Virus record (IMG/VR): IMGVR_UViG_3300035139_000059
Location: 1-57,446 of that record
From: a virus
Lineage: Duplodnaviria; Caudoviricetes
DNA length: 57,446 nucleotides
Direction: 5' to 3' (one strand)
The notes below the pieces were generated by a model that saw nothing but the letters and a program-made list of their open reading frames with translations, was not told the DNA's origin and ran no database searches. Positions within the stretch are counted from its first letter, which is position 1, and each line of letters opens with the position of its first letter. Of the stretch, positions 29,773-46,919 are shown piece after piece. Made by a program: the position numbers and the translations under genes.

Positions 29773-30549
29773 GTGCATAGAATTGAAGGCGCTAATGTAG
29801 ACTGGGAAAACGGGCGATCTTTTTTTCGTTCTGATCCTCCTTATACTGTCGTGACGCCAGAGTGGCTGACTGCTGTTCAAGAAGAAATAATGAATGTTTT
29901 ATCAGGCTTAGGTCTTCCGGTTTTGGGTCAGGCAAATGATACACACGATCAACTGTATACGGCAATAAATGGGTTATCTTCAGTTCCTGTAGGGTCGATA
30001 ATAGCGTGGTTACCTGGTTATTTCACAGACGGGGTAAATGGTGGCTATACCGCAGTTACTGATGTAGAACTTCCCAACAACTGGAAAGAATGCACTGGCG
30101 CTAATGTTAATGATTCTGCAAGTCCTATTTATAATGGCGCAGGGCGTTATTTGCCTAATTTAACAGATGACAGGTTTTTAATGGGTGATATTGCAGGTAG
30201 TGCAGGTGGAATTGGTGGAACTGATACACAGACACATAATATTCCGGCTCATTATCATGGGATGGGTACAGGTGCAACTTTGAATATTACTGCAAGCGGT
30301 AGCCACTTTCATAATGTTTGTACACAAAATACAGGTGGCTTAAGCCTTAATACATTATATAATAGTAGTTCCGGTTCCGCAGCAGCTCAAAATACAGATT
30401 CAAAAACACACACGCATGGTTCAGGTAATTTTTCTGGAGTGATAGGACTAGTTACAGGTGGTGTTAATGGTAATGCTTCTATGACAAGTGGATCATCGGA
30501 TAATAAACCAAAATATTTATCAGTTAGATATATACAAAGGATTAGATGA
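29773..30549 (+). CDS. Second tail fibre, paralogous N-terminus
   Basis: MHRIEG..TVVTPEWL..QEEIMNV is shared with 28523. It has a collar-like PVGSI..LPNLTD.RFLMG and HxH repeats. Confidence 0.82.
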   Translation: MHRIEGANVDWENGRSFFRSDPPYTVVTPEWLTAVQEEIMNVLSGLGLPVLGQANDTHDQLYTAINGLSSVPVGSIIAWLPGYFTDGVNGGYTAVTDVELPNNWKECTGANVNDSASPIYNGAGRYLPNLTDDRFLMGDIAGSAGGIGGTDTQTHNIPAHYHGMGTGATLNITASGSHFHNVCTQNTGGLSLNTLYNSSSGSAAAQNTDSKTHTHGSGNFSGVIGLVTGGVNGNASMTSGSSDNKPKYLSVRYIQRIR

Positions 30550-30794
30550 TGATAACATATAAAGTAAAATATAAACAAAAAGGCAGTTTTTTTTGGAAAA
30601 CTATTCGTAAAATTAAAGGCGATGGCGTGGTCAATGAAAATAAGGTAGCACGATATTTCATCCGTGAGAATGAAGAAAGAATCGAAATTCCATGTCATGA
30701 TACTATATTTAAATTTAGCAAAGAAAGGTGGATGTTAATTTCTCAACGTATGAATGCCGAGGCGGGTCAAGCTATCTCAATTGATAAAAGATAA
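30546..30794 (+). CDS. Hypothetical protein after the fibre genes
   Basis: 82-aa ORF overlapping the fibre stop codon. Confidence 0.6.
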   Translation: MMITYKVKYKQKGSFFWKTIRKIKGDGVVNENKVARYFIRENEERIEIPCHDTIFKFSKERWMLISQRMNAEAGQAISIDKR

Positions 30795-30833
30795 CTGGCC
30801 AAGAAATAAAAATAAAAAAAAGGTGAATTTTAA

Positions 30834-31358
30834 ATGAACAATGTTTTATTAACTAATATCATCATGGGTATTTTTGGATTTTTTATTACTTCTTTAGTTG
30901 GATTATTAATTTATATTTATAGAGGAAATTTAAAAAATTTTACCAAACATGTAAAAGAAGATGAAGATACAAAAAAAGATTTAGTTAATATATTAAATAG
31001 AAAAATGACTAAAGAAGAATGTGAGATTAGACAACAATATATTGATTATGCATTAAATGCGTGGCAAAATAAAACAAAAGATGATTTTATTTCAATTAAA
31101 GACATTGTTACAAATGCAATAAATAGACAAGGAAAAAATATTGATAAATTATTTGATAAATTTGAACATTTTCAAAAGGATTTAGGAATTAAATTCGAGA
31201 ATTTGCAAAAAGATTTTCGAGAATATATTTATGATAAAGAAAAAAAGGATAATGAATATAAATTGGAAATGAAAGGCAAAGTAACTAAAATGGAAAATAT
31301 AATTGAAAATTTTATTATAAATACAACAACAAAAAAAATACAAGAATTAAAAAATTAA
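30834..31358 (+). CDS. Single-TM coiled-coil protein (possible holin/lysis accessory)
   Basis: N-terminal TM helix and a charged helical remainder, at the end of the late operon. Confidence 0.55.
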   Translation: MNNVLLTNIIMGIFGFFITSLVGLLIYIYRGNLKNFTKHVKEDEDTKKDLVNILNRKMTKEECEIRQQYIDYALNAWQNKTKDDFISIKDIVTNAINRQGKNIDKLFDKFEHFQKDLGIKFENLQKDFREYIYDKEKKDNEYKLEMKGKVTKMENIIENFIINTTTKKIQELKN

Positions 31359-31374
31359 CAAAAATCTAATTAAA

Positions 31375-32052
31375 TTAATTATTTTTATAAAGATTTTTTA
31401 TTTTTAAAATATCAATTTCCGATAATTCATCGGAATATATTTGTTCTGGCATTTCTATCGTTTTTTTATTATTTTTAGAAAATGAATAACTTCTATAATG
31501 TAAAATAGATTTATAGTCATATTTGTATTTAAGAGGATCATATATATATTCATTTTTATCATAAATAATTGTAAAATTATTTATTTTATTATTTTTAATA
31601 TTTTCAAAATTAATTTTAATATATTGATCTCTATCTGGACGCTGATGCTCATGGCGAAATCCCAAGCAATGCATTAGTTCATGATTAATATGTTTTTTAT
31701 TAACTGTTTTTAATGTTATATAAGAAATTTCTGAACAACCTATTATTGAATAATTTTTATTTTCTTTAACTATTTTTACTATATATTTATTTTTATTTTC
31801 TGCTTTATTTTCTATAAAAAAAATACAATCTGTTCTATATTCTATAATATCCATACATTTTCGAATAAGTTTTTTTTCATCTTCAGAAAACCAATATAAT
31901 TTATAATATACTATTCCATTTTCCCATTTTTTAAGTGGAATATTAATATTAATTGCATTTTTTATATCTTTTTCGGAAATATCTATATATTCGCATTTTA
32001 TTATTAATAAAAAAGTTATAAATATAAATATTATTTTAAATAAATTATTCAT
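31375..32052 (-). CDS. Astacin-family (M12A) zinc metalloprotease with signal or lipoprotein peptide
   Basis: HELMHCLGFRHEHQRPDRD zinc motif, YDYKSILHY at the Met-turn position, and a hydrophobic leader ending in Cys20. Confidence 0.88.
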   Translation of the reverse strand: MNNLFKIIFIFITFLLIIKCEYIDISEKDIKNAININIPLKKWENGIVYYKLYWFSEDEKKLIRKCMDIIEYRTDCIFFIENKAENKNKYIVKIVKENKNYSIIGCSEISYITLKTVNKKHINHELMHCLGFRHEHQRPDRDQYIKINFENIKNNKINNFTIIYDKNEYIYDPLKYKYDYKSILHYRSYSFSKNNKKTIEMPEQIYSDELSEIDILKIKNLYKNN

Positions 32053-32248
32053 TTTTAATTCCTTTAATTTTATTTAATTTTTTATAAAAATTTTTTAAAC
32101 ATTGAATTTTTTCAATTTTTTGTTTTAAATTTTTAATTTCTTTTTTTGTACTTAAATATAATCTTTTATTTTTTATATCAATAATATAGTTTATTTTTTC
32201 ACTCATATTATTTTTTATATCAATAATATAGTTTATTTTTTCATTCAT
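32045..32248 (-). CDS. Hypothetical protein with a duplicated 14-aa N-terminus
   Basis: MNEKINYIIDIKNN / MSEKINYIIDIKNK. Confidence 0.5.
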   Translation of the reverse strand: MNEKINYIIDIKNNMSEKINYIIDIKNKRLYLSTKKEIKNLKQKIEKIQCLKNFYKKLNKIKGIKNE

Positions 32249-32249
32249 A
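32166..32249. repeat. 42-bp tandem duplication
   Basis: Two adjacent 42-bp units (32166-32207 and 32208-32249) with one mismatch. Confidence 0.85.
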
Positions 32250-32426
32250 ATTAAATTCCTTGTTTATTGTATTAACTATATTGTCGATACTTTTTTTAAG
32301 TTTATTATAAGCTTTAATTAAATATTCTATTTTTTCAATCGCTTTTATAGTTTCTTTATTTTTAATATAACTTAATTTATAAGTTGTATTATCTATTTTA
32401 AAAGATTTAATTTTAATTTCATTCAT
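32241..32426 (-). CDS. Hypothetical protein, first gene downstream of the ribozyme
   Basis: Strong AAGGAGGA RBS at 32432-32439 (minus strand). Confidence 0.6.
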   Translation of the reverse strand: MNEIKIKSFKIDNTTYKLSYIKNKETIKAIEKIEYLIKAYNKLKKSIDNIVNTINKEFNYE

Positions 32427-32446
32427 AATAATCCTCCTTTTTAGGG

Positions 32447-32472
32447 AGCGCCCCTGGGCGGGTAGGGGCGCT
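32447..32472 (-). promoter_or_regulatory. GC-rich stem-loop between the ribozyme and the RBS
   Basis: Perfect 9-bp stem AGCGCCCCT/AGGGGCGCT with an 8-nt loop. There is no U-tract in the transcribed direction. Confidence 0.6.
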
Positions 32473-32483
32473 TAGAAATTATG

Positions 32484-32537
32484 ATCTTCTCTCTGCATTT
32501 ACCCGGACTTGAGACCGGCCTCGGTTGCATTAAAGAT
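32484..32537 (-). ncRNA. Twister self-cleaving ribozyme (type P1)
   Basis: RNA AUCUU-UAA-UGCA-ACC-GAG-G-CCGG-UCUCAAGU-CCGG-GUAAA-UGCA-GAG-AG-AAGAU. P1, P2, P4 and both pseudoknots pair, and the conserved UAA, CAAG and GAG are present. Confidence 0.92.
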
Positions 32538-32538
32538 T

Positions 32539-32556
32539 CTAGCCCCGAAGGGCTAG
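32539..32556 (-). promoter_or_regulatory. C(UUCG)G tetraloop hairpin immediately 5' of the ribozyme
   Basis: CUAGCCC-UUCG-GGGCUAG, with a near-identical copy at 39951-39968. Confidence 0.75.
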
Positions 32557-32568
32557 TTTTGATTTAAA

Positions 32569-32841
32569 TTATCTATCTCCCCAAATTCGCAAACCTTTTT
32601 TTCGCAAGTTTTCTTCAATCTTTCGAGTATTTTTGTATAAATACTTTTCTGAAGTAGTTCTATCATAATAACACATTTCTTGAAAATTCTTATCATTATC
32701 TAATTCAAAGATCGCTTCTCTGATTGATTCTTTAATTGTTTTATGATGCCCGTATCTTGTCCCGTAAGGATAATCCATCACCGTTCTAATCATTTTTTTG
32801 GTAACTGTATCTGCTGATTGTTCTTTTGTTAATTTAGTCAT
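32569..32841 (-). CDS. Hypothetical early protein (cassette 1 cargo)
   Basis: GGAGG RBS. It lies between promoter repeat copy 1 and the hairpin/ribozyme. Confidence 0.75.
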   Translation of the reverse strand: MTKLTKEQSADTVTKKMIRTVMDYPYGTRYGHHKTIKESIREAIFELDNDKNFQEMCYYDRTTSEKYLYKNTRKIEENLRKKGLRIWGDR

Positions 32842-32853
32842 AATTTCCTCCCT

Positions 32854-32967
32854 GGCCGAAGCCTTTTATAATTTCTATATACAATATACTAAATTATTAT
32901 AATTTTGTCAATTATTTTTTTTTTTTTTATAAATAATTTTATAAAAATGTTTTATAATTTTTATTTT
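32854..32967 (-). promoter_or_regulatory. 114-bp repeated sigma70 promoter element, copy 1
   Basis: An A14 tract, TTGACA (32911-32906), a 17-bp spacer and TATATT, then GGC-TTCG-GCC. It is the reverse complement of 39141-39254. Confidence 0.88.
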
Positions 32968-33464
32968 TTGTATTCTCTTAAATATTTAGCAATAAATAAT
33001 CCATCTGCGTCTTTTTGTTGTATTATTTCGTCTTTCATTTCTGGAAAAATTCTAATTCCAATATCACGAGATATTTTTTTTAAATTTACTGATCCTTTAA
33101 TTCCTTTAGGAAAATATATTTTTTGCCATGTTTTTGAATCTATATATATATAAGATAATAATAATTGTTCGATGGCAATAAGCTGCGATTCTAAACATCG
33201 TGAGGCACTAATAGTAGCTTTAAATCGTGTATGATTTATCATCGGCCTTTCTAATGCAATTTTACAATTTCCTTGATGTTTTAAAGCATTGAGTAAATTA
33301 AAAAAATTATCAAAACATATTCTTGTTATTTGTTGTTTAGTTTTTGTATAAGATTGTTCTGTTTTAATAGGAATTTTAATTAATTTGTATTTTTCTGTTT
33401 TATTATAAATTATTCCAATTGAACCAGTAACTCCGTTATCTATTCCTATATAAATTTTTTGCAT
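32961..33464 (-). CDS. RuvC-like Holliday junction resolvase
   Basis: IGIDNG, IALERP, W.K and DADGLFIA acidic motifs of phage RuvC-like nucleases. Confidence 0.78.
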   Translation of the reverse strand: MQKIYIGIDNGVTGSIGIIYNKTEKYKLIKIPIKTEQSYTKTKQQITRICFDNFFNLLNALKHQGNCKIALERPMINHTRFKATISASRCLESQLIAIEQLLLSYIYIDSKTWQKIYFPKGIKGSVNLKKISRDIGIRIFPEMKDEIIQQKDADGLFIAKYLREYKK

Positions 33465-33469
33465 TATTT

Positions 33470-33634
33470 TTATTTATTTAAATATTTTTCTATTGCTAAA
33501 TCAATATAATCTTCTAAAATTTGTGTAGCTGTAAAAGATTTTTTCCATTTTCTATCATTAGCAATTTTTTTAATTTTTTCATATGTTTTTTCTGAAATAG
33601 TTGGATGAATTTGACCCTGAATTTTTTTTGTCAT
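33470..33634 (-). CDS. 54-aa ribbon-helix-helix (Arc/CopG-like) regulator, not in ORF track
   Basis: MTKKIQGQIHPTISEKTYEKLKKIANDRKWKKSFTATQILEDYIDLAIEKYLNK*, with an AGGAG RBS and a strand-helix-helix pattern. Confidence 0.6.
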   Translation of the reverse strand: MTKKIQGQIHPTISEKTYEKIKKIANDRKWKKSFTATQILEDYIDLAIEKYLNK

Positions 33635-33659
33635 TTGTTTTCTCCTATTTTTTATGTCT

Positions 33660-33746
33660 AAGGTAATATTATTTTATATATATGTCAAATATTTTTTATA
33701 AAATCAAAAAAATTCCTTGACAAAATTAAAAAAATTTTATTTATTT
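33660..33746. promoter_or_regulatory. Back-to-back promoter region of the early divergence point
   Basis: TTGACA on the minus strand (33688-33683) and on the plus strand (33717-33722), between divergent genes. The -10 boxes are imperfect. Confidence 0.45.
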
Positions 33747-33787
33747 AAAGAGAATAAAAAAATATTTTTTAAAAAAGGGGGCTATAT

Positions 33788-34075
33788 ATGTTAAACATGG
33801 CAATGAATATTGATAATGTAGAAGATATTTTTGTATATTTAAAAAGTTTTTATTTTCAATATGAAAATTATAAAAAAGCTAAAAATGTAAAAATGGAAAT
33901 AATGTATCAGGAAGTTATGCTTGAATTATTTTTATTTTTAATAAATGATACGGAAAACAGTTTAAAAAGATATATTAATCAAAAATTGTTATGTCTGGAA
34001 GGTGATAAAAAATGGCTTTGTTCAGAAATGGGAATAAAAGCATTAAAAGAATTATTAAAAATAGTTAAATTTTAA
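33788..34075 (+). CDS. Hypothetical protein
   Basis: First gene of the rightward early operon, with a GGGGG RBS-like sequence. Confidence 0.6.
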   Translation: MLNMAMNIDNVEDIFVYLKSFYFQYENYKKAKNVKMEIMYQEVMLELFLFLINDTENSLKRYINQKLLCLEGDKKWLCSEMGIKALKELLKIVKF

Positions 34076-34082
34076 AAAAAAT

Positions 34083-34322
34083 ATGAAAAAAATTAAAATA
34101 TATACAAATGGAAAAAGATATATTAAGTTTTTTTCTGAAACAGAAATAGAAAAAGATAAAGATGGAATTTATGAGGAAATAAATAAAATAATTAATGATA
34201 ATTTATTTTTAGAAAAAATAAATATTATGATAAATAATAATATTATAACAATAGATGAAATTGTTGATTATTTTAAAGAAATATTAGAATTTAATTTAAT
34301 TAAAAATACAAAAAAAATATAG
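34083..34322 (+). CDS. Hypothetical protein
   Basis: 79-aa ORF in operon context. Confidence 0.5.
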   Translation: MKKIKIYTNGKRYIKFFSETEIEKDKDGIYEEINKIINDNLFLEKINIMINNNIITIDEIVDYFKEILEFNLIKNTKKI

Positions 34323-34330
34323 AGGCTAGC

Positions 34331-35467
34331 ATGAATAATATAGAAATAAAAACCGTAGAAAAAATATTACCGGATTTTATAAATGAAAATTGGTTAATTG
34401 AGCCAGAATACTATAATTATAGGATAAATTATAATGGCCAACGTTTTTATGCCAGATGCTATGAAAATAGATTAGAAAATGGCGAGATAGAATATAATGT
34501 ATTAACGGCACCTTCTTTTTCTGCAATATATAATAAAGTTGTTCCATTAGGATACGGACTTCAGGAATGGTATAAAAATTTAACAAAAGAGCAGATAGAA
34601 TTTAATTCACATAATTCTGCTATATACGGGACTATATTCCATATTTTATGCGGACGTATTTTGCGAGGAGAAAAAATTTTAGTAGATGAATTATATATAA
34701 ATACAGAAATAGAAAGATATTGCCAGGAAGAAGATGAAAATTTAGAAGATTTAAAGAAATGGATTAAAAATGAAAAACGTCGATTATTATTAGATTTACT
34801 GGCGTTTACAAAATGGATTAAAGATTTTAAGGTAATCCCTATAGCAATAGAATATCCTGTTTTTTCTGATAAATGCGCTGGGACTATAGATTTGATCGCC
34901 AAGATAATTGTTCCACTAAAATATACAAAAGATGAACTTGTAGAAATAGCGATGAAAAAATATCCCATATGGCGGCCTATAAGCACCAAAGCCTATACGA
35001 GCTCTTCCGAAAGTTCCATTAGAAAATTAACTAAAGAACAAATAATAGAAAAATGCGATATAAAAAGAAATGGTGAATATATTGCGCTTATAGATTTAAA
35101 ATCGGGGCAAAAAGGATTTTGGGAAACCAATGCGATGCAATTATATCAGTATGCGAAATGTTGGAATGAAGAATATCCAGATTTAAAAATAACAAAATTA
35201 TTTAATTATGGATGTGATAATTACAGACTTCCTAATGTTAAATACAGGTTTAAAGATCAGACAGATAATAAAAAAATATTTAAAAAATGGGATAAATATG
35301 TAGAAATTTATTATGTAGATGAGCCTTCAAAACCAGAAAAAATGTATGAATTAAATTCCGCCGAATATTTTGATCCAGAAAAAATTGATGATCTTGTGAT
35401 TGAATTTGATCCTTTACAAAGAATAATTGAAATAATAAAAGGGGAAAAAGAAAAAGAGGAATTTTAA
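34331..35467 (+). CDS. PD-(D/E)XK exonuclease-like recombination protein
   Basis: GTIFH, IEYPV..AGTIDLI, IDLKSG and QLYQY motifs. Confidence 0.78.
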   Translation: MNNIEIKTVEKILPDFINENWLIEPEYYNYRINYNGQRFYARCYENRLENGEIEYNVLTAPSFSAIYNKVVPLGYGLQEWYKNLTKEQIEFNSHNSAIYGTIFHILCGRILRGEKILVDELYINTEIERYCQEEDENLEDLKKWIKNEKRRLLLDLLAFTKWIKDFKVIPIAIEYPVFSDKCAGTIDLIAKIIVPLKYTKDELVEIAMKKYPIWRPISTKAYTSSSESSIRKLTKEQIIEKCDIKRNGEYIALIDLKSGQKGFWETNAMQLYQYAKCWNEEYPDLKITKLFNYGCDNYRLPNVKYRFKDQTDNKKIFKKWDKYVEIYYVDEPSKPEKMYELNSAEYFDPEKIDDLVIEFDPLQRIIEIIKGEKEKEEF

Positions 35468-35469
35468 AA

Positions 35470-36171
35470 ATGAGAATAAAAAATAACACAACAAAAATGC
35501 CAGTAATAGGCAAAATAAAAGTTGGTGAAAGAAATGAAAATGGATATCCAATTTCTTTAGATTATTTTAGAGCAACAGGAAAACATAAAAATGAATTTTA
35601 TAGAATTTTTGGTGAAAAGCCTAACAATATTAAAATACTTTTTCTTGATGATGATAATAGTATTGATGTAAGATATGAATTAAGGCAAGGGAAAAAACTA
35701 TACGCATATTCAGATGGCGAAAATGTTTTTGCATATCATAAAGAATTAGATAAATATGCTTTACAAGAAAAACCTTTTATTGATTTAGAAGAAAAATATG
35801 TAAAAATTATTGGAAATGAATGGGAAAAAATTTTAAGACTATATTTTTTAATCCTGGAAATAAAAATTTGGGGATTATGGTGTTTTGAAACAAAAGGGGT
35901 TGAATCAACTATACCTCAGATCGAGGGTAGTTATGATTCTGTATATGCCAGAGCTGGCACTGTGGTAAATATTCCATTTGATTTAGAAGTTAAGAAAGTT
36001 GTTTCACAAAAGCCAGATAGTAAAAATAGTTATCCTGTAGTTAGTTTAACAGCTAATTTAAGTGAACCGTCATTAGAAAAAATAAGAAATGCAATAATGA
36101 ATGACGTACAAATAAATGGAATGATAACAGAAGAAAAATTAAATCGAATTGGGTTTAAGGGGGAGAATTAA
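35470..36171 (+). CDS. Gp3-like / recombination-directionality-factor-like protein, probable annealing partner of the exonuclease
   Basis: MP.IGKIKVG..YP..LDYF, L.F.I..G.W.F.TK and IPF.L..V..YPVV, adjacent to the exonuclease. Confidence 0.6.
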   Translation: MRIKNNTTKMPVIGKIKVGERNENGYPISLDYFRATGKHKNEFYRIFGEKPNNIKILFLDDDNSIDVRYELRQGKKLYAYSDGENVFAYHKELDKYALQEKPFIDLEEKYVKIIGNEWEKILRLYFLILEIKIWGLWCFETKGVESTIPQIEGSYDSVYARAGTVVNIPFDLEVKKVVSQKPDSKNSYPVVSLTANLSEPSLEKIRNAIMNDVQINGMITEEKLNRIGFKGEN

Positions 36172-36172
36172 T

Positions 36173-36448
36173 ATGTTAACAAAACAAAAATTGATGGATA
36201 TGCAAAATAATAATATTTTTGCTTTGGGAGAAATTGAACATAAAAAATATCCAAATTTGATAGCAGATACAGAGATTATAAGATGGATCGCAATACGTGG
36301 AGATTTTTATGATTGGGCTATCTATTATGATGATTATGACAAAACAATTGAAGAGATTGCTAAAAAAGGAAGAAAATGTATTTCTCAAAATTTAATAAGG
36401 ACATTAGTTTTTTGCGATGAAGAAGCATTTAAATTATACAGATTTTAA
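36173..36448 (+). CDS. Hypothetical protein (probable start ATG 36173)
   Basis: GGGGAG RBS and RWIAIRG..DWAIY. Confidence 0.65.
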   Translation: MLTKQKLMDMQNNNIFALGEIEHKKYPNLIADTEIIRWIAIRGDFYDWAIYYDDYDKTIEEIAKKGRKCISQNLIRTLVFCDEEAFKLYRF

Positions 36449-36776
36449 TAATAAAATTTTAAAAGGGGAAAATATTAAGATGATATAATTATTTAATATA
36501 AAGGAGAATAAATTTAAAAGAGGTGAAAATAATATGGAAATTTTTATAATATTTTTACTGTGGGTAATTGTTTTTATTTGTTTAAAAATATCAAATCCAA
36601 AATAAAAAAAAGGGGAAAGCTATGTCAGAAAAAGAATTAGAAACTATTTCAGATGAAGCTTTAAAAGAAATGAACAGAGAATTAAGAGAATTTCTGTTAA
36701 AAGAAGATGAAAAATTGCTTGACAAATATATGGATAATAGTTTTTTTAAATTAAAAAAATAGAAAGCATTTCTTTC

Positions 36777-36865
36777 TCTCACCAATGATATGCTTTTTGG
36801 GAAGCTAGCCCCAATTTAATACTGGTGAGACGCCGAAAGGTGAGTATTGAGTTGGGGTTTTTTAT
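36777..36865 (+). terminator. Terminator/antiterminator-like leader upstream of the replication initiator
   Basis: A 16-bp stem (36808-36823/36843-36858) with an inner CGCC-GAAA-GGUG hairpin and a U-tract. TCTCACCA (36777-36784) is complementary to TGGTGAGA (36823-36830). Confidence 0.6.
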
Positions 36866-36928
36866 TTTTATGAGGGTTGAATGGAAGATATACTTCTTTA
36901 TTTCATACGAAAAATAAGTCAGGAGGAC

Positions 36929-37786
36929 ATGAAAATGGATTATAATGAATTTATACGTTTTGAAGAATCACAAAGGGAAAGTATAAGATTAAATAAAATT
37001 TATATAGATATAACTGGAGATCTTGTATCAGGATTACTCTTATCACAAATAATATATTGGAATTTGCCGTCAAAAGTAACAAATATAAAAAGATGTGGTG
37101 AATATTTAGTAAAAAAACGTAGTGATTGGTGGGAAGAAATAAGGATATCCGAAAAACAATACGACAGGGCAATAAATATTTTAAAATCAAAAGGTCTAGT
37201 TACTGTTATAATTAAAAAATCAAACTTTTATATTGGCAACACTGTTCCCCATATAAAGCTTAATTATGACAATTTTATATCAGAGGTGAAAACGAGAATT
37301 GACGAAAGGTCAAAACCAGAATTACCCAAAGGTGAAAACGAGAATTTACCAAAGGTGAAAACGAGAATTGACGAAAGGTCAAAACCTTCTATTACAACTA
37401 CTACTTCAGATAATACGGCAATTATTACTTCAAATATCCCTGAAAAAATAAACCCTGAAATCAAAGAACTAACCGAATATCTCTTTGAACAAATAAAAAC
37501 AAACTCTAATCCACCTAAATGGAACTCAAATTCTCCTAAATTACAAAATTGGTATGACGATATCGAAAAACTTAATCGTATTGATAAAATTGAAATAGAT
37601 CAAATAAAAAAAGTAATTACCTGGTCTACCGCACATAATTTTTGGAAATCAAATATTTTATCCGGCGGTAGTCTACGAAAATATTTTGACAGATTATTTA
37701 TACAAATGGGAAATGAAGGGAAGAGAAATAATAAATTTAATGGAAATAGTCAAGAAGAGATACAGGAGTATTTAAATGGAGAATAA
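36929..37786 (+). CDS. Phage replication initiator (probable start ATG 36929; ORF track start 36881)
   Basis: N-terminal wHTH (ITGDLVSGLLLSQIIYW..WWEE..QYDRA..L), central DNA repeats, and a C-terminal FWKSNILS..LR..FD.L domain. AGGAGG RBS. Confidence 0.82.
   Translation: MKMDYNEFIRFEESQRESIRLNKIYIDITGDLVSGLLLSQIIYWNLPSKVTNIKRCGEYLVKKRSDWWEEIRISEKQYDRAINILKSKGLVTVIIKKSNFYIGNTVPHIKLNYDNFISEVKTRIDERSKPELPKGENENLPKVKTRIDERSKPSITTTTSDNTAIITSNIPEKINPEIKELTEYLFEQIKTNSNPPKWNSNSPKLQNWYDDIEKLNRIDKIEIDQIKKVITWSTAHNFWKSNILSGGSLRKYFDRLFIQMGNEGKRNNKFNGNSQEEIQEYLNGE
37282..37386 (+). repeat. Iteron array (about 4.5 copies of a 23-bp unit), probable replication origin
   Basis: Units of AAAGGTSAAAACSAGAATTNNCN start at 37282, 37305, 37328, 37351 and 37374 (partial). 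The period is not a multiple of 3. Confidence 0.82.
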
Positions 37787-37946
37787 AATGAAATTTTCTA
37801 ATATAACACAACAATATATTATAAATATAGATGGAACACCTAATAATGAATATCCATTAAGAATATAATTGATGAATGAACATTGCGATCAAAGGGCAGA
37901 AATTTTGAAAAAAGCGATAAATATTTTAGAAAAGGAGCTTTGAAAT

Positions 37947-38465
37947 ATGACAGCAAAACAAGCGATGATATATTTATGTCAGATATATAGAACAGATATT
38001 AAAGACGTTCAGGTTAAACCAGTAGAAAAATGGTTAGAAAAAAATATACAAGAAACTGAAATGCAAAAATTTGTCGGTAAAATATTGCAAAACGTAAAAA
38101 CAGAATATGAAAAACTGCCGTCAGTGGCGACATTAGAAGAGATAAAGAAACCGGATAAAAATTTGTTAGAGCAGCTAGCACATCAAAAATTTAATGAATT
38201 AATAAATAAAGTAGATTCTTATAGAGATTTTATTACGGATGACAATCGAATACAAGCTGGTTTAGATGCCATAGGGGGGTGGCTAGCATTATGCAATTCT
38301 TTAAAAAATGAATTGAAATGGTTAAGAAAAGATTTTATAAAAGCTTTTATTCAAGAAGGGATTAATCCTATAACTATTTGTAAGCGTAGCTATGGAATAG
38401 GAACAAGTAAAAAATATAATTTTATAGGAAATGAAAAAAAATGTTTAGAAATAATAAAAAATTAA
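37947..38465 (+). CDS. DUF6475-like protein, probable helicase loader/replication accessory
   Basis: Follows the initiator, with LPSVA and D.RI..AIGGW..LC..WLRKDF..AF. Confidence 0.6.
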   Translation: MTAKQAMIYLCQIYRTDIKDVQVKPVEKWLEKNIQETEMQKFVGKILQNVKTEYEKLPSVATLEEIKKPDKNLLEQLAHQKFNELINKVDSYRDFITDDNRIQAGLDAIGGWLALCNSLKNELKWLRKDFIKAFIQEGINPITICKRSYGIGTSKKYNFIGNEKKCLEIIKN

Positions 38466-38481
38466 AAAAAGAGGTAAAAAT

Positions 38482-38754
38482 ATGAAAAATTATGTAGTTG
38501 TAACAACAGACAAAAAAGGCGTTTTTTGGGGAGAATTAGTTAAAGATGAATCTCCAAAAAAATGCATTTTGAAAAATGCAAAAATGTGTCTTTATTGGAC
38601 TATAAAAACACAAGGAGTTTTAGGATTGGCTAATATAGGGCCACAGAAAGGGTCTCGACTTACGCCACCTGTTCCCCAAATTGTTTTATATGATATTACC
38701 GCAATAATAAAATGCACCCCAGAAGCAACAAAACAATGGAGTGAAACACAATGA
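38482..38754 (+). CDS. Conserved phage hypothetical protein (DUF6948-like)
   Basis: YVVVTT..GVF.G.L, L.NA..YW and G..GLA..GP. Confidence 0.6.
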   Translation: MKNYVVVTTDKKGVFWGELVKDESPKKCILKNAKMCLYWTIKTQGVLGLANIGPQKGSRLTPPVPQIVLYDITAIIKCTPEATKQWSETQ

Positions 38755-39137
38755 AAATAAAATTTTTATATAAGAGTAGAAATTTTAATGATATTGACTA
38801 TGGCGATGGCTATGGCTCTGGCTTTGGCGATGGCTATAAAATTGAAATATTACAAAAAGATGCAATTAAAGCATATCACTACATCCAAAAAAAAGACAAT
38901 TTTTTTATCCTGCGAAATGGTGAAAAAATAAAATTAAAACAAAAATTATATGAACCTGTAATAAAATTATGTGAATACGGGTTGCATGCCTCCTTATGTA
39001 TAGAAGATGCTAAAACATATAAGTCATCAGAAAATTGCGTATTAACAAAAGTAAAAGTCTGGGGAGAGATAATATTTTCCAAGGATAAATTAGTTGCAAC
39101 TAATAGACAAATTGTAGAAGTTTTAGATGAAACGTAA
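38751..39137 (+). CDS. Hypothetical protein with a short GDGYG repeat and a GLHAS domain
   Basis: YGDGYGSGFGDGY and LCEYGLHAS..DKLVA. Confidence 0.65.
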   Translation: MKIKFLYKSRNFNDIDYGDGYGSGFGDGYKIEILQKDAIKAYHYIQKKDNFFILRNGEKIKLKQKLYEPVIKLCEYGLHASLCIEDAKTYKSSENCVLTKVKVWGEIIFSKDKLVATNRQIVEVLDET

Positions 39138-39140
39138 TTT

Positions 39141-39254
39141 AAAATAAAAATTATAAAACATTTTTATAAAATTATTTATAAAAAAAAAAAAAATAATTGA
39201 CAAAATTATAATAATTTAGTATATTGTATATAGAAATTATAAAAGGCTTCGGCC
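39141..39254 (+). promoter_or_regulatory. 114-bp repeated sigma70 promoter element, copy 2
   Basis: TTGACA 39197-39202, a 17-bp spacer and TATATT 39220-39225. It appears identical to the inverted copy 1. Confidence 0.88.
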
Positions 39255-39267
39255 GGGGAAGGGGATT

Positions 39268-39939
39268 ATGACTAAAGAATTAAAAAAAAGAATGACTACT
39301 ATAAGTGGAAAAGAAATATTTATAAATTTTGAAATTGATGAAAGAATTGTAACAAACTATTGTATATCTGATAATGTAAAATGTTTTTTCAATAATCATC
39401 AATTATATTTTAGGATAGTTAATAAAAAGAATTGTTTATTAGCAAAAGGATTAGCAAAAAAAGAAATATGTGATTTTTTAAATCTTAAAATAAACAGTGA
39501 TAAAGATTTAATTCTTTCTTTTAATGATTCAGAATGGAAAGAAATTAACGAAATTAAAGAAAACAATAAAAAAGAATATAAAAGTTATGCTAAAAAAGAA
39601 GCTGAAAGAATTGTAAAAGAAAAAATTAAGGTGTGTGAAAACGATATAGAAGAAGCTATATGGGATGAATTGTGTTCTTGTTTAAATAATTATCATAAAG
39701 TTTTTGTTTCTGAAAAAGACGGGAATGACGAAATTTCAACTCTTGATGATTATGACTACAGAAGAAACAAACAATATTTTATTTTTAGTAAAAAAGAAAT
39801 AATAAAAGAGAATGAAATTAAAAAAAATGAAATTGAGGAAATGAAATATAAAGCAATTGCTAACGAAAAATTAACAGAAAAGGAAAAAAATACTTTAAGA
39901 GATAATGATTTTGATTATTTAATAGGGAATGCTTATTAA
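39268..39939 (+). CDS. Hypothetical early protein (cassette 2 cargo)
   Basis: Lies between promoter copy 2 and the hairpin/ribozyme remnant. It starts ATGACTAAA, like the cassette 1 ORF. Confidence 0.75.
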   Translation: MTKELKKRMTTISGKEIFINFEIDERIVTNYCISDNVKCFFNNHQLYFRIVNKKNCLLAKGLAKKEICDFLNLKINSDKDLILSFNDSEWKEINEIKENNKKEYKSYAKKEAERIVKEKIKVCENDIEEAIWDELCSCLNNYHKVFVSEKDGNDEISTLDDYDYRRNKQYFIFSKKEIIKENEIKKNEIEEMKYKAIANEKLTEKEKNTLRDNDFDYLIGNAY

Positions 39940-39950
39940 AATAGTCTAAA

Positions 39951-39998
39951 TTAGCCCTTCGGGGCTAGAGTCTTTAATGCGCAGAGAGAAGATCATAA
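39951..39998 (+). ncRNA. UUCG hairpin plus degenerate twister ribozyme remnant (30-nt core deletion)
   Basis: TTAGCCCTTCGGGGCTAG-A-GTCTTTAATGC/GCAGAGAGAAGAT-CATAA matches the 32479-32556 element minus ribozyme positions 12-41. Confidence 0.85.
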
Positions 39999-40008
39999 CA
40001 GAGGCGAT

Positions 40009-40266
40009 ATGACAGAAAAAATGATAAAATATAAACAATATATGATTTTATTTTATAATACAAAAAATAGCAAAATTATAAGGTCAAAATTTTGGCTTAC
40101 AAAAAGAAATGCTGAAAAATATTTTTCTTTAGTTAAAAATAGATGGCAAGATGAAAAGTTTAATACTATAAGAAGAAAAAATATTCCAAATATTCTATGT
40201 GTTTTATACGGCAAAAAAGAATTTGGTGATTGTTGGGAAGAGCTTAATTATTGTTTTTGTGGGTGA
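40009..40266 (+). CDS. Hypothetical protein, paralogue of 42282..42569
   Basis: Shared IKY.QYMILF, SKFW, YF.LV, KFN.IR and CVLYG.K. Confidence 0.7.
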   Translation: MTEKMIKYKQYMILFYNTKNSKIIRSKFWLTKRNAEKYFSLVKNRWQDEKFNTIRRKNIPNILCVLYGKKEFGDCWEELNYCFCG

Positions 40267-40289
40267 ATAAAAAGTTGTAGAAATTTTAA

Positions 40290-40985
40290 ATGAAAAATAA
40301 TTTTAAAATAATAAAAATAAAAATTACATCTGATATGGTTGGACAAGATTGTTTTATTTCTTCTGAAAAAGAGATATATAATAAATGCATTTATGGACAA
40401 TTAACCGCAGCAAGTATAAATTTAAAAATAAAACCACGGAGTCTCGAACAACATAGACTGTTATTCGCAATTTTTAAAGAAATATCTGAGCAATTAGCAG
40501 ACGATAATAATTTTAATACAATTGAAAAAATAAAAGAGCAGACAAAATTAGCATGTAAATTTATAGATTGTTATTATTATTATGAAAATCAAAAAACCGG
40601 TAAAAAGGAATTAAATATAAAAACAAAATCAATTTCTTTTGATAAATTAGATCATTATGATGCCTGTGGATTATTTGATAAATTTTTTGAATATTGTGCT
40701 GAATTATTAGGAATTGATAAAGATACTTTAATCGAAAATATTAGTAAAAAAAATAAATTGAGACCGACTTGCGTTATATGTGGAAAGAAAGCAACACAAA
40801 AACATCATAAATTCGCTGACACAAAAGTTAATAGGGAAAAATATAAAAAATTATTAGATGCTGATTTTAATCTAATTGATATTTGTCATGATTGTCATGT
40901 TAGTCATAATAATTATATTTTATGCCGAGATTATGTTTTAAATGAAAAAGAGTTTTTAGAATTATGTAAAAAGAATAAGACATAA
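40290..40985 (+). CDS. NinB/DUF1367-like protein with a C-terminal HNH-like zinc module
   Basis: PRSLEQHRLLFA..KSISFDKLD and CVICG..HH..N..ICHDCH. Confidence 0.6.
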   Translation: MKNNFKIIKIKITSDMVGQDCFISSEKEIYNKCIYGQLTAASINLKIKPRSLEQHRLLFAIFKEISEQLADDNNFNTIEKIKEQTKLACKFIDCYYYYENQKTGKKELNIKTKSISFDKLDHYDACGLFDKFFEYCAELLGIDKDTLIENISKKNKLRPTCVICGKKATQKHHKFADTKVNREKYKKLLDADFNLIDICHDCHVSHNNYILCRDYVLNEKEFLELCKKNKT

Positions 40986-41172
40986 ATTAAAAAAATGGAG
41001 AATAATATGAACAGAGTTTTAATGTATTCAGGAGGTTTTGCCATAGGATGGGTAACTTCTCTAAAAGTTATGGCTGGTTTTTAAATGGAAGTTTTAATGT
41101 TATAGGAGCTGTTCGTAATAAATTTATTTTTTATATTGAACATGCACAAAAAATAAATTTAAAAAAAATGTC

Positions 41173-41322
41173 TTGACAAAAAAAATAAAATTTTTATTAT
41201 AAATCACCCTTTTTAAAAAAATGCAATTTAGAGGGGGGACAAACCTACCTTGATTTTGTTGTCCCCTTTCTAAAGATAAATTTAAAAAAATATTTGACAA
41301 AATATATTAAAAATTTTAAATA
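41173..41322 (+). promoter_or_regulatory. Two TTGACA promoter-like boxes flanking a long hairpin
   Basis: TTGACA at 41173 and 41294, each preceded by ATAAATTTAAAAAAA. The 16-bp stem is 41227-41242/41259-41274. Confidence 0.45.
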
Positions 41323-41456
41323 AATAAAGGGAAAAAAAATGGGGATTAAAATATTTGATAAAATATGTGAATGTGGCTATCATATTAGATATGAAGGTTT
41401 TGTTCCAAACAAAATAAAATGTAGTAAATGTAAAAAAATTTTAAAAAGGGATTCCA

Positions 41457-41648
41457 ATGAAAATAAAAACAAACAAGCAAAAAACGATTGAAAATTTAGA
41501 AAATAGAATAGACGAAATTAATTATCAAATCATACAGATACAATTAAGAGATAAAAAAACTTGGTTAATTAAACAAAATTTAAAAAGGAAAAAGCAGGAA
41601 AGAGAAGATTTAATTCAATTATTAATTAATTTAAAAAGTTTAAAATGA
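41457..41648 (+). CDS. Small coiled-coil hypothetical protein
   Basis: 63-aa ORF with an AAGGGA RBS-like sequence. Confidence 0.5.
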   Translation: MKIKTNKQKTIENLENRIDEINYQIIQIQLRDKKTWLIKQNLKRKKQEREDLIQLLINLKSLK

Positions 41649-41711
41649 ATAAAGATTTAATTTTAATATGCATTTGGGTTATAATATTATTGCTTTTTAT
41701 TTGTATTCTCT

Positions 41712-41933
41712 ATGAAAATAGGAGCAAAAATGAGTAAAGGTGATATTTGGAAAGAGCTTTTAGTTTTTGCCGGTGGTGTTTTATTATTAATAATTTCTAT
41801 TTGTGTTATTTGCATAATATGGATATTTTTGGTAGCATATAAAAATTATATAGGAATGATAGCTTTTGTTGTAATTACAATTTTTTTGTTAAAATTTTTA
41901 TTTAAATTATTTCAATGGCTGAAAGGAGAATAA
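41712..41933 (+). CDS. Small two-TM membrane protein
   Basis: Two hydrophobic helices. The start may be the second Met, after AGGAG. Confidence 0.55.
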   Translation: MKIGAKMSKGDIWKELLVFAGGVLLLIISICVICIIWIFLVAYKNYIGMIAFVVITIFLLKFLFKLFQWLKGE

Positions 41934-42007
41934 TATGATGTATTCTTGGGTTCTTAATAATTTTTGTATTAGGATTATCTGCGAAATAAATTTATTATAA
42001 GAAAAAT

Positions 42008-42298
42008 ATGAAAACTTTTTTAAATTTTAAATTTTCTATATTTCCGTATGTAATTATAAAACGAGGGCCAAATACAAAATATTATGAAAGTATTCATTTT
42101 AATAACAAAAAGACAAAAAAACAAATAAATATTTTTTATAATAAAGTTAATAAAAAAATTAATATAGGATTATATGATGGAACAAAAAAAAATGAAAGAG
42201 ATAAATTGAAACATATTTGTTCTTTTGATAAAATAGAAAAAAATAAAATTATTAAAATTTTAAAGGAATATTTTATTATATATGAAGAAAAAAAATAA
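42008..42298 (+). CDS. Hypothetical basic protein
   Basis: 96-aa ORF in operon context. Confidence 0.45.
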   Translation: MKTFLNFKFSIFPYVIIKRGPNTKYYESIHFNNKKTKKQINIFYNKVNKKINIGLYDGTKKNERDKLKHICSFDKIEKNKIIKILKEYFIIYEEKK

Positions 42299-42569
42299 TT
42301 TAAGGAGAGATAAAATTAAAATAAAATATATACAATATATGATTTTATTTTCTGATATTAGATTTAATTATGTTTTAATGTCAAAATTTTGGCGTGATGA
42401 ATCAGAAGCATTTGATTATTTTCAGTTAGTTTTAACTGATTGGAAAAAAAATTATAAATTTAATAATATAAGAAAGAAAGCAAAAAGCATTTCGTGTGTT
42501 TTGTACGGTCAAAAAAAATCCGGTTCTTGGAAAGAAATTGATTGGGTTTTTCCGCAATTAAGTTTATGA
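42282..42569 (+). CDS. Hypothetical protein, paralogue of 40009..40266
   Basis: Shares motifs with the 40009 ORF. The true start is uncertain. Confidence 0.65.
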   Translation: MKKKNNLRRDKIKIKYIQYMILFSDIRFNYVLMSKFWRDESEAFDYFQLVLTDWKKNYKFNNIRKKAKSISCVLYGQKKSGSWKEIDWVFPQLSL

Positions 42570-42677
42570 ATAATAAGGAGAAATAAAATGAATATTGGTA
42601 GCATATAAAAATTATATAGGAATGATAGCTTTTGCTGTAATTACAATTATTTTGTTAAAATTTTTATTTAAATTATT

Positions 42678-42953
42678 TTGATGGTTAAAAGGGAGGATAA
42701 GATGAATAAAAAAGAAAAAAGATTAGTTAGTTTCTTGTTAGAAATAGCTTCAGATCATTTTTCTAATCATGGATGTAATGATTTTGAATTGGAGTGGGTA
42801 GAAAAATGGAATAAAAAAGAAAAAGAAGCATTAAATCGAGAAATGCATATATGGCACATGTCTAATAAAAAAGATTATAAAGATATTTTATATCATTCTG
42901 ATTATTTTTTAATGTCTTTTTTTTCTAATAAAATTAAAGGAGAAATAAAATGA
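42678..42953 (+). CDS. Hypothetical protein
   Basis: ASDHFSNHGCND motif. A GGGAGG RBS favours the internal Met (MNKKEK). Confidence 0.65.
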   Translation: MMVKREDKMNKKEKRLVSFLLEIASDHFSNHGCNDFELEWVEKWNKKEKEALNREMHIWHMSNKKDYKDILYHSDYFLMSFFSNKIKGEIK

Positions 42954-43195
42954 ATATTGGTGCGTTATGGTTAAAAGAAAAAGATGGGAAGAGATATTTT
43001 ACAGGAAAAATACAATATCCAAATTTTGAATTGCAAATTGCTATATTTAAAAATGAAAATAAAACAAGCGAAAACGCCCCTGATTATAATATAATTTGGA
43101 GTAATTTTAATAAAAAAAATAATCAACAAGATCAACAGCAAAGTATTACACAGCCAAAATCATTTAATGAATTAGATAATGATATTCCATTTTAA
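42950..43195 (+). CDS. DUF736-like small protein with an SSB-type acidic tail
   Basis: IGALW..G.RYF.G.I..F.N..K..APDY and a C-terminal DNDIPF. Confidence 0.7.
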   Translation: MNIGALWLKEKDGKRYFTGKIQYPNFELQIAIFKNENKTSENAPDYNIIWSNFNKKNNQQDQQQSITQPKSFNELDNDIPF

Positions 43196-43206
43196 GGAAT
43201 TATGGT

Positions 43207-43953
43207 GTGAAAAAAATAACTGCAATTATACAAGCAAGGTTAGGAAGTACTAGGTTGTCTGGCAAAGTTTTATATCCCGCATTAAAAAAACCTTTTTTAT
43301 GTCATTTATTAGAACGCATTCAAAGATCAAAAAAAATAAATGAATTTTTAATTGTGACAACAGATCATTCTATTGATAAAACATTAGGCGAATACGCGAA
43401 ACAATATAATTGTAAAATTTTTTATGGAGAAAGTGAATATGTTTTAGATAATATCATAAAAGCATGTGATAAATATAATATTGAGACTATTGTCGATATA
43501 ACCGCCGATTGTCCGCTTATAGATCACAGAGAAATTGATAAAATGATTAAAATTTATAATTATTATCAAAAAAACAATATGGAAATTACATATGTTGCAA
43601 ATGTCGTAAACAGGACCTGGCCTCGTGGTTTTGATTTGCAAATTTATGACGCTAAAACATTAAGATATTATTATAAAAAAATTACTAATGAAAAACATAA
43701 AAATCATTCAGGCTGGAATATTTTAATTCGAGAACAAGATTTAAAAATATTTGATTATTATTATAATGGTAATTTGTCAGAATGGCGTTTATGTATAGAC
43801 GAATACGATGATTATGTTTTAATAAAAAAAATATTTGAATATTTTAAAGATAATAAATTTTCTGCTTATGATATTATTAATTATTTAAAGAAAAATCCAA
43901 AATTATTAGAAATAAATAAAAATGTTAAACAAAAAAAAGCAGGGCAAGGATGA
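43207..43953 (+). CDS. SpsF-like acylneuraminate cytidylyltransferase-family protein (copy 1)
   Basis: IIQARLGSTRLSGKVL, GE...VL, ITADCPLID, P.GFD and RLCIDEYDD. Confidence 0.88.
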   Translation: MKKITAIIQARLGSTRLSGKVLYPALKKPFLCHLLERIQRSKKINEFLIVTTDHSIDKTLGEYAKQYNCKIFYGESEYVLDNIIKACDKYNIETIVDITADCPLIDHREIDKMIKIYNYYQKNNMEITYVANVVNRTWPRGFDLQIYDAKTLRYYYKKITNEKHKNHSGWNILIREQDLKIFDYYYNGNLSEWRLCIDEYDDYVLIKKIFEYFKDNKFSAYDIINYLKKNPKLLEINKNVKQKKAGQG

Positions 43954-43956
43954 TAT

Positions 43957-44358
43957 ATGATTTCAGTATTTAAAAGTATATTTACAGGGGAGCTTAAATA
44001 TATTTTAAAAAAAACGAGAAAAAGCGAAAGGAAAAAAGGAAAAAAAGAAAGGCGAAAAGCTGTAAAAAGAGCTACAATTGATGTTGAGAATTTTTATAAA
44101 ATAAAATTACAAGAAAAAAATTTAGAAATGGAATCATTAAAAATTAAAATTAGTGAATTAGAACGAAAAGAAAGAAAAATGAAAAACAAATGGCATGAAA
44201 TAAGAGAAATAAATGTATTGCAACGTCGTGTTGCTTCTGATTTAGTATATTTGCAAAAAGAAAGACAAACAGAAAATATAGAATATTTTCAAAAATTTAC
44301 ATCTTTAGTTACACAATTAGACTATATAGAAAAAAAAATGATAGGATTAGATAAATGA
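43957..44358 (+). CDS. Coiled-coil hypothetical protein
   Basis: 133-aa charged helical ORF. Confidence 0.55.
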   Translation: MISVFKSIFTGELKYILKKTRKSERKKGKKERRKAVKRATIDVENFYKIKLQEKNLEMESLKIKISELERKERKMKNKWHEIREINVLQRRVASDLVYLQKERQTENIEYFQKFTSLVTQLDYIEKKMIGLDK

Positions 44359-44502
44359 AAAAAATTGATTTGTTTAAGCAAAAAGAAAAGGATATTTATT
44401 TATGTTATAGTGATCCTTATCATAAAGGGCCTACTCTTCTAATAAATAATATAAAAATTTGTTTAAATTATAATCAATTAGAAAATTTAAAGGAATTATT
44501 AA

Positions 44503-46567: not shown

Positions 46568-46599
46568 AAGAGAAAAAATGGTTAAAGAGGATTTATTAA

Positions 46600-46902: not shown

Positions 46903-46919
46903 TAATTAAGGGGAAGAAA

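Follow-up and report, generated by a model that had tools for sequence, protein, structure and literature searches.

PeSL cassettes, as described in T4-type phages, are units of about 100 bp which reach from a stop codon to the next ATG and comprise an AT-rich tract, a strong sigma-70-like promoter, a stem-loop and a Shine-Dalgarno (SD) sequence beside ORFans, that is, orphan open reading frames (ORFs) (PMC2839356; PMC4122927). In one subclass the stem-loop lies between the -10 hexamer and the SD, and mini-circles were shown as well (PMC2839356). Twister ribozymes cleave at a U-A step and have two pseudoknots, L4-L1 and L4-L2; the P0 stem is optional, P3 is present in 78% of them and the crystallised basic form is without P3 (PMC6154101). 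For bacterial twisters the processing of polycistronic mRNA has been suggested, while their role is described as unresolved (PMC6765202). Here we describe a locus in which elements of both kinds occur together, in the IMG/VR virus record IMGVR_UViG_3300035139_000059, which was analysed as a whole (57,446 nt, linear; hereafter the window) and has a CheckV completeness of about 50%. The window comes from a wetland metagenome and covers part of the genome of a contractile-tailed phage; it has a G+C content of 29% and 92 densely packed ORFs called in the standard bacterial code, 84 of which were taken in by the PHROG and Pfam scans; the statements below on genes seen or missing refer to these 84. 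Two of its genes, which we call cargo 1 and cargo 2, stand behind nearly identical 119-nt promoter modules and ahead of homologous hairpin-twister stretches, and a third copy of the module lies farther downstream (Table 1). In the reading that we favour, and consider fairly probable, two kinds of repeated cis-regulatory elements are combined here, namely a PeSL-like early promoter module in three copies and a hairpin-twister unit which serves as mRNA punctuation. The locus is thus a combination of two known phage regulatory repeats and not a new system.

The 5' module resembles the PeSL cassettes in several respects. It spans the distance from an upstream stop codon to the downstream ATG, including the SD; its putative promoter reads TTGACA-17-TATATT behind a run of 14 A (A14) in copies 1 and 2, and has TATGTT as the -10 hexamer in copy 3; several copies lie next to ORFans in a plastic early region with paralogues and remnants close by; and the homology is long enough for phage recombination. 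The main differences are that the stem-loop after the -10 hexamer is a UUCG hairpin of only 3 bp with no evident terminator role, the upstream palindromes being AT-only, that the copies are nearly identical instead of following a loose consensus, and that there is a second, 3' frame with a ribozyme. Moreover, the phage is not T4-type, since its initiator is DnaD/O-like, its gene set differs, and the scanned part of this roughly half-complete genome showed no replication genes of the T4 type. The twister, for its part, has P1, the UAA loop, P2, P4, the conserved L4, UAAA and both pseudoknots in common with the phage type-P1 twisters, and lacks P3 like the basic form. Unlike in other phage twisters, an extra 9-bp hairpin lies ahead of the SD, and there is a paralogous copy which is reduced to its outer arms. 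The synthetic insulator RiboJ, which consists of a ribozyme and a 23-nt hairpin ahead of the ribosome-binding site (RBS) (PMC6206723), has the same order of ribozyme, hairpin and RBS, and by analogy the arrangement in the window would provide the gene behind it with a structured 5' end that is always the same, whatever stands upstream. It differs from RiboJ in being natural, in using a twister and not a hammerhead-type ribozyme, and in lying between two genes instead of after a promoter, with a function that is presumed. Integron cassettes and morons are likewise single accessory ORFs with their own expression signals in a conserved frame. However, neither an integrase nor an attC-like site came to light in the window, where the flanks consist of promoter and ribozyme, and, unlike those of morons, these flanks are homologous between the cassettes. 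A narrow literature search, with subscription journals mostly outside it, found no description of promoter-ORF-hairpin-twister frames in phages.

The promoter module and its cargo genes

The module begins at or just past the stop codon of the preceding gene and consists of AT-only palindromes, the A14 run, TTGACA, a 17-nt spacer, TATATT and GGCTTCGGCC; the SD and the start codon come next. In copies 1 and 2 the sequence behind the module includes the SD and ATGACTAAA, so that the RBS and start motif which the original prediction, made from the letters of the window, had noticed in both genes are indeed common to them. Copy 1 and copy 2 are identical at 118 of 119 positions, and the pairs with copy 3 at 113 and 114 of 119. 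The repeat, its A14 tract and the TTGACA-17-TATATT promoter therefore agree with what had been predicted, except that the unit was put at 114 bp and its copies were taken as identical; it measures 119 nt, and the copies differ from each other at 1-6 positions. The inverted repeat that had been proposed around a 6.2-kb block is present too: copies 1 and 2 are arms of 99% complementarity, 6,173 nt apart, with copy 3 at 95%. The hexamers of copies 1 and 2 reach 11 of the 12 consensus positions at the 17-nt spacing, a score found at only three sites in the 19 kb from 30000 to 49000. Over the whole scan, 158 sites were found against 152 in the shuffled sequences. As this is no excess, the argument for a promoter rests on the quality of the match and its repetition, and not on the scan.

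The rightward early genes are preceded at 33688-33754 by a more distant relative of the module, which probably drives them, as judged from its sequence. The motif TTGACAAAAT shared with it occurs exactly at seven sites of the window. Five of these sites, those in the three copies and those at 33717 and 41294, were checked and lie between genes, and the site at 50305 falls within the ORF 49737-50438. In the region 41173-41330 there are two further TTGACA promoters (41173 and 41294) on either side of a hairpin (GGGGACAA...TTGTCCCC), which is followed by T-rich sequence, and this region may yield a short non-coding transcript.

Copy 3 lies ahead of the ORF at 55168, as had been predicted, and it is decayed: one of its six mismatches falls in the -10 hexamer and another breaks the leader hairpin, the start context behind it differs, and no hairpin or twister was found 3' of the ORF that it precedes. 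In addition, copy 3 is preceded by a stretch of about 45 nt that is homologous, with a frame-breaking indel, to the 3' end of the DUF7666-like gene preceding copy 2, and a third remnant of this gene end is found at 40271-40322. Since copy 3 carries such a piece of a gene end, segmental duplication explains it better than a discrete mobile unit, and it looks like a decaying promoter copy that arose by ordinary segmental duplication.

The two cargo genes are not related to each other (BLASTP E value 5.1) and yet their flanks are homologous on both sides, in agreement with the claim that unrelated ORFs share one frame. For cargo 1, two homologues with 70% and 68% identity were found among 5.8 billion clusters and three representatives in a profile search among 1.84 billion proteins; for cargo 2, the 5.8 billion clusters hold one homologue with 75% identity. 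Neither has a family in Pfam or PHROGs or a usable Atlas neighbour. The AlphaFold model of cargo 1 is helical with a mean pLDDT of 59, too poor for a fold search. As for the anti-defence or host-takeover role which had been suggested for the cargo, Pfam, PHROGs, the Atlas and the cargo-1 model give nothing for or against it.

The hairpin-twister unit and its deleted paralogue

On the 3' side of cargo 1 there follow in order a 7-bp UUCG hairpin, the twister, a 9-bp hairpin and the SD of a 61-aa ORF. The UUCG hairpin predicted after both ORFs was found in both places, with the sequence CTAGCCC-TTCG-GGGCTAG or TTAGCCC-TTCG-GGGCTAG. Perfect G+C-rich hairpins are rare here: the window has nine, three of which lie inside the two cassette frames. 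The twister after cargo 1 scores 54.1 bits against RF03160 and is full-length (model positions 1-68, cmscan), with an E value of 9.3e-12 in a 241-nt search and of 2.2e-9 in the whole window, where it is the sole RNA family with an E value below 0.1. The nested helices P1, P2 and P4 and the UAA internal loop with the U-A cleavage site are all present. The minimum-energy fold of the 146-nt stretch contains the first hairpin, P1 (5 bp), P2 (4 bp), P4 and the second hairpin at -48.7 kcal/mol, which is reached by only 1 of 200 shuffled sequences (z -3.2). Both pseudoknots are intact. In the first one (T1), L4 UCUCAAGU meets L1 GAGAG so that CUC faces GAG with U-A as the central pair; in the second one (T2), GU at the end of L4 faces AC of L2 with a U-A pair, where the other loci have GC facing GC. 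Thus the departures of this twister from the consensus occur in complementary pairs, which suggests compensatory changes that keep both pseudoknots. Taken together, the sequence presents the twister of cassette 1 as a credible ribozyme. The hairpin abutting it may correspond to the optional P0 stem, which we take to be located 5' of P1.

For calibration, every viral contig with the P4/L4 core pattern was collected, which gave 33 loci in 16 sequence clusters, a sample biased to the same P4. Among the 16 cluster representatives, two reach the Rfam gathering score of 67.2 bits as twister-P1 and another two are type-P5 twisters. With E-value thresholds, all nine loci scored have a twister-P1 at the fetched site with 49.6-63.2 bits, and locus L061 has a second one at 56.8 bits; the 54.1 bits of the window twister are therefore ordinary and mid-range for phage twisters. 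A script found both pseudoknots fully complementary in 30 of the 33 loci, locus L048 being mis-parsed and two type-P5 loci being unfit for the parser. At the centre of T1, 24 loci have A-U, four have C-G (including the mis-parsed L048), two have G-C and one has G-U, while the window twister, unlike the other parsed ones, has U-A here and also U-A in T2, where the others have C-G. The same A/U change in T2 occurs in L048.

The surroundings of these twisters are also alike. A hairpin ends 0-8 nt before the U of the cleavage site in 28 of the 33 loci and 12 of the 16 clusters, in 27 loci the stop codon of an ORF with 50 codons or more lies no farther than 75 nt upstream, in 28 loci the start of an ORF lies no farther than 130 nt downstream, and the neighbouring ORFs are small. 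The window twister conforms to the arrangement of the 28 loci with such a hairpin: a stop codon precedes it, an RBS follows, and a hairpin directly adjoins it on the 5' side. Some contigs have more than one such element. L041 and L053 lie on one 20-kb contig as two modules with just 81 nt in common at 85% identity. In L061 a distance of 1.2 kb separates two modules (1300-1365 and 2471-2540), and behind each of them come an RBS and an ATG. A twister occurs together with two type-II hammerheads and RAGATH-28 in L057, and with a twister-sister in L055. Hence phage twisters usually stand in the order stop codon, hairpin, twister and RBS, and this arrangement is repeated within some genomes. No matches were obtained when eight proteins of the region were compared with the 33 loci by tblastn.

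In cassette 2 the hairpin stretch matches that of cassette 1 over 36 nt at 92% identity, and the 3' flanks of both cassettes are collinear save for an exact 30-nt deletion in cassette 2, which corresponds to 32497-32526. What the two have in common is the hairpin, the P1/P2 arms of the twister and ATCATAA. The deleted parts, L2, P4, L4 and UAAA, are those which form both pseudoknots and contact the cleavage-site adenine (PMC6154101). The remnant has no Rfam twister match even at E values up to 10, and its stretch folds no better than shuffled sequences (z -0.83). Because arms have been kept without their pairing partners, only a deletion from an intact twister explains cassette 2, and its twister is, to judge from these letters, a dead deletion remnant. 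The original prediction of a twister after both ORFs thus holds for cassette 1, and in cassette 2 a remnant stands in its place.

Table 1. Features of the window, with the two cassettes and the third promoter copy first
Feature	Position	Strand	Remarks
Cargo 1, 90-aa ORFan, predicted helical	32569-32841	-	starts ATGACTAAA behind GGAGG SD
Promoter/5' untranslated region module, copy 1	32849-32967	-	-35 TTGACA/-10 TATATT at 32911..32883; GGCTTCGGCC at 32854-32863; begins at stop codon of 167-aa gene
7-bp UUCG hairpin, cassette 1	32539-32556	-	ends 2 nt ahead of twister P1; terminator-like, tail AATCTTTAAT
Intact type-P1 twister without P3, 52 nt	32485-32536	-	RF03160; P1 extends to 5 bp over 32484-32537
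Predicted twister cleavage	between U32532 and A32531	-	by homology (PMC6154101)
9-bp G+C-rich hairpin, between twister and SD of next ORF	32447-32472	-	without U tract
Cargo 2, 223-aa ORFan	39268-39939	+	starts ATGACTAAA
Promoter/5' untranslated region module, copy 2	39141-39259	+	A14 39180-39193; hexamers 39197..39225; GGCTTCGGCC 39245-39254
UUCG hairpin, cassette 2	39951-39968	+	homologous to 32539-32556
Twister remnant, cassette 2	39971-39992	+	P1, L1, P2 arms retained; L2, P4, L4, UAAA deleted
Promoter module, copy 3	55034-55152	+	113/119 identical; -10 is TATGTT; hairpin broken (GGCTTCGACC)
220-aa ORF behind copy 3	55168-55830	+	phrog_3000, function not assigned; different start context
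Distant promoter relative	33688-33754	+	78% over 67 nt; A-rich tract and TTGACAAAAT in common; precedes rightward early genes
Block between inverted copies 1 and 2	32968-39140		divergent promoter region 33635-33787; RuvC-like 167-aa gene, exonuclease, Gp3-like, DnaD/O-like initiator; last gene DUF7666-like 128-aa
Leftward unit behind twister	31375-32426	-	61-aa ORF, 67-aa ORF, 225-aa astacin-family (M12A) metallopeptidase
Short leftward block	31375-33634	-
Long rightward early/accessory block	from 33788	+	exonuclease, Gp3-like, DnaD/O-like initiator, many small ORFs, nonulosonic-acid sugar genes
Contractile-tail structural module	~5.6-31.4 kb	+	terminase, portal, major head protein, sheath, tube, tape measure, baseplate, fibres; PHROG/Pfam scans

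Proposed mechanism and competing explanations

We assume that in cassette 1 the host RNA polymerase would start near 32876, about 7 nt past the -10 hexamer, and transcribe the 90-aa ORF. Part of the transcripts would end at the terminator-like UUCG hairpin, and those that read through would fold the twister and be cut 7 nt past this hairpin, yielding a short cargo-1 mRNA which ends in the hairpin and a 2',3'-cyclic phosphate. Termination and cleavage would thus be two routes to nearly the same hairpin-protected 3' end, and on the downstream RNA a 5'-OH would be followed by the folded ribozyme and then by the 9-bp hairpin, just ahead of the SD of the next gene. Cleavage could in this way make a strongly expressed ORFan independent, in its stability and translation, of the three genes behind it, including the putatively secreted astacin-family peptidase, while in cassette 2, without the catalytic core, cargo 2 would stay joined to the genes behind it and the insulation would be lost. 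As to the earlier claim that the ribozyme defines transcript ends, it is well placed for the 3' end of the cargo-1 mRNA and is intact only once. The shared frames arose most likely by duplication and homologous recombination, which the phage exonuclease and recombination genes can drive, and they could serve as homology for further shuffling. A dedicated mobility mechanism is not indicated.

Several points weigh against the combination of PeSL-like promoters and twister punctuation. The transcription start, the partial termination, the self-cleavage and the effects on stability are all deduced from the sequence, and the promoter usage and the set of RNases of the host are assumed. The score of the twister does not reach the Rfam gathering score; this is because the optional P3 is absent. 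The ribozyme seems dispensable for the genes of cassettes 2 and 3, as it was lost from the one and is absent from the other. The leader hairpin of the original prediction is recognisable as GGCTTCGGCC in copies 1 and 2, but it has only 3 bp, is absent from the predicted fold (the three leaders have z values of -0.62, -0.12 and -0.02 against shuffled sequences) and was lost in copy 3 without compensation. Moreover, work in E. coli puts such a hairpin too far from the inferred 5' end for the role of a 5' stabiliser. Finally, the tail sheath finds 32 loci with 54-73% identity among viral contigs, and the five longest of these records share only structural genes with the window; none of the five has the twister, the Gp3-like gene or cargo 1. 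Conservation of the arrangement is therefore not supported.

The strongest of the other explanations, possible in our view though clearly less probable, takes the repeats as linker modules for the exchange of gene cassettes: co-infecting phages would often swap ORFans through them, or circles carrying ORFans would be excised from between direct copies. Two unrelated ORFans with homologous flanks on either side are the pattern expected of portable linkers, as described for the PeSL cassettes, which set a precedent (PMC2839356). The cargos are ORFans with only one or two homologues in the 5.8 billion clusters; the genes of the phage include those for an exonuclease, a Gp3-like protein and a RuvC-like protein; the direct copies 2 and 3, 15,893 nt apart, bracket accessory genes and could delete or circularise that block; and the early region is rich in paralogous small ORFs and gene-end remnants. 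However, there are just two full frames, one of them decayed, cassette 3 has no 3' frame, copy 3 brings along a piece of a neighbouring gene, and no integrase or dedicated recombinase was seen among the 84 scanned ORFs. In addition, homologues of both cargos exist elsewhere with 68-75% identity, which points to resident genes rather than to rapid turnover.

Other cargo between the same flanks, which the original prediction had expected among relatives, did not come to light. Neither the region 31300-41000 (megablast) nor the 119-nt module (blastn) has a match in 50,697 phage records, and the hairpin-twister stretch gave only 41 nt of its hairpin region, in T5-like phages (E value 0.009 and weaker), which we take as convergent terminator-like hairpins. 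Exact and gapped patterns of the promoter and the twister have no match in viral contigs, and a 25-mer of the promoter has none in metagenome contigs. The Gp3-like protein and the alignments of cargo 1 and cargo 2 gave no confirmed relative in viral, metagenome or genome contigs, and the tail sheath gave none in genome contigs. The single match to the hairpin-plus-P1 pattern (L007) is a G+C-rich unrelated contig without a twister and was discarded as a chance match. No genome with another cargo between these flanks is thus at hand. The claim of a swappable cassette system keeps the unrelated ORFans, the homology of both flanks and the analogy with PeSL, and is left with one intact ribozyme frame and no observed exchange. 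Cargo swapping by recombination is plausible on this analogy, drawn from two frames. A bolder version, which we regard as rather unlikely, would be a natural plug-and-play unit, where wetland phages exchange ORFans by recombination in the promoter and hairpin-twister modules, and each newly acquired gene is strongly transcribed and cut out as an insulated mRNA. If this were true, the loss of the ribozyme core in cassette 2 would turn an insulated gene into an operon-coupled one.

It is improbable that the twister is an inactive fossil, the UUCG hairpins being intrinsic terminators or attenuators and the repeats ordinary duplicated early promoters. The score under the Rfam cut-off, the second copy, which is demonstrably dead, and the terminator-like flag on the UUCG hairpins would fit such a fossil, but the score is mid-range for phage twisters, and all nested helices and both pseudoknots have stayed intact via compensatory changes, which would be unexpected in decaying sequence. 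Slightly less probable still is an invertible segment, in which recombination between the inverted copies 1 and 2 flips the 6.2-kb replication and recombination block into two genome isomers. The arms of 119 nt are 99% identical, the phage encodes recombination functions, and, since both promoters point outward and the block itself is divergently transcribed, every gene would have a promoter ahead of it either way and a flip would alter little. However, no invertase-type gene, including recombinases of the Gin/Hin/Cin type, was seen among the 84 scanned ORFs, and no regulatory consequence is evident, so that the inversion, if it occurs, is probably a by-product. That the repeats were made by mis-joining in this metagenome contig of about half completeness is hardly credible, because all three copies have unique flanks with continuous ORFs on either side and differ at 1-6 positions, two contigs in the protein collection carry each cargo protein (the longest of 57,530 nt), and the region is present in two wetland-metagenome DNA runs, the first of which may be its source and the second of which holds 58% of the sampled words; the repeats are thus real, as had been claimed. 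The combination of PeSL-like promoter modules with hairpin-twister punctuation remains the explanation that we prefer.

Surroundings of the cassettes and implications

Several other features of the window were observed. The 225-aa metallopeptidase of the astacin family (M12A; 31375-32052, minus strand; Pfam E value 7e-32) is the last gene of the leftward unit behind the twister and has a hydrophobic N-terminus, and the 67-aa ORF in the same unit contains a 42-nt tandem duplication (32166-32249, 97% matches). Within the block between the inverted copies, the DnaD/O-like initiator gene (36881-37786) has 4.4 tandem copies of a 23-nt unit at 37284-37385 (84% matches), which look like the iterons of a replication origin. 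Between the direct copies 2 and 3, a sugar-nucleotide cluster (43207-54873) encodes two CTP_transf_3 cytidylyltransferases, a GFO_IDH_MocA oxidoreductase, a DegT aminotransferase, a Polysacc_synt_2 dehydratase and a GNAT acetyltransferase, accompanied by an 865-aa MptE-like (Maf-type) protein with TPR repeats. It resembles a phage-borne nonulosonic-acid glycosylation pathway of the pseudaminic or legionaminic type. The DegT aminotransferase gene (46920-48311) shares a 101-nt direct repeat of 98% identity (47696-47796) with the gene 3790-4839 (phrog_11143; 4134-4234), and both genes also match weakly an ABC-transporter domain. Three paralogous small-ORF starts with conserved RBS and N-termini lie in 45426-46661, and the middle copy, in which TAA replaces the CAA of the other two, is either a truncated paralogue or a pseudogene; further paralogue pairs are 40024/42321 and 41829/42595. 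Near the right end, a 55-aa ORF (55814-55981) matches just the extreme C-terminus, the glycyl-radical end, of the anaerobic ribonucleotide reductase NrdD (Pfam E value 1.2e-9), and a tandem array of 12-nt and 36-nt repeats (56745-57171; 21.5 copies of 12 nt) encodes a four-residue repeat within an ORF that runs from 56510 past the end of the window.

The findings are not unexpected enough to overturn current views. The role of twisters in bacteria and phages is still described as unresolved (PMC6765202), and the locus offers a compact natural test case for it, in which the paralogous frame with only the ribozyme core deleted comes close to a natural knock-out control. The occurrence of the same setting at 28 of 33 viral loci, together with the phages that have it in multiple copies, suggests a general role of the hairpin-twister unit as mRNA punctuation. 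Furthermore, PeSL-like repeats outside the T4-type phages would extend the PeSL model of plasticity in phage genomes beyond that group.

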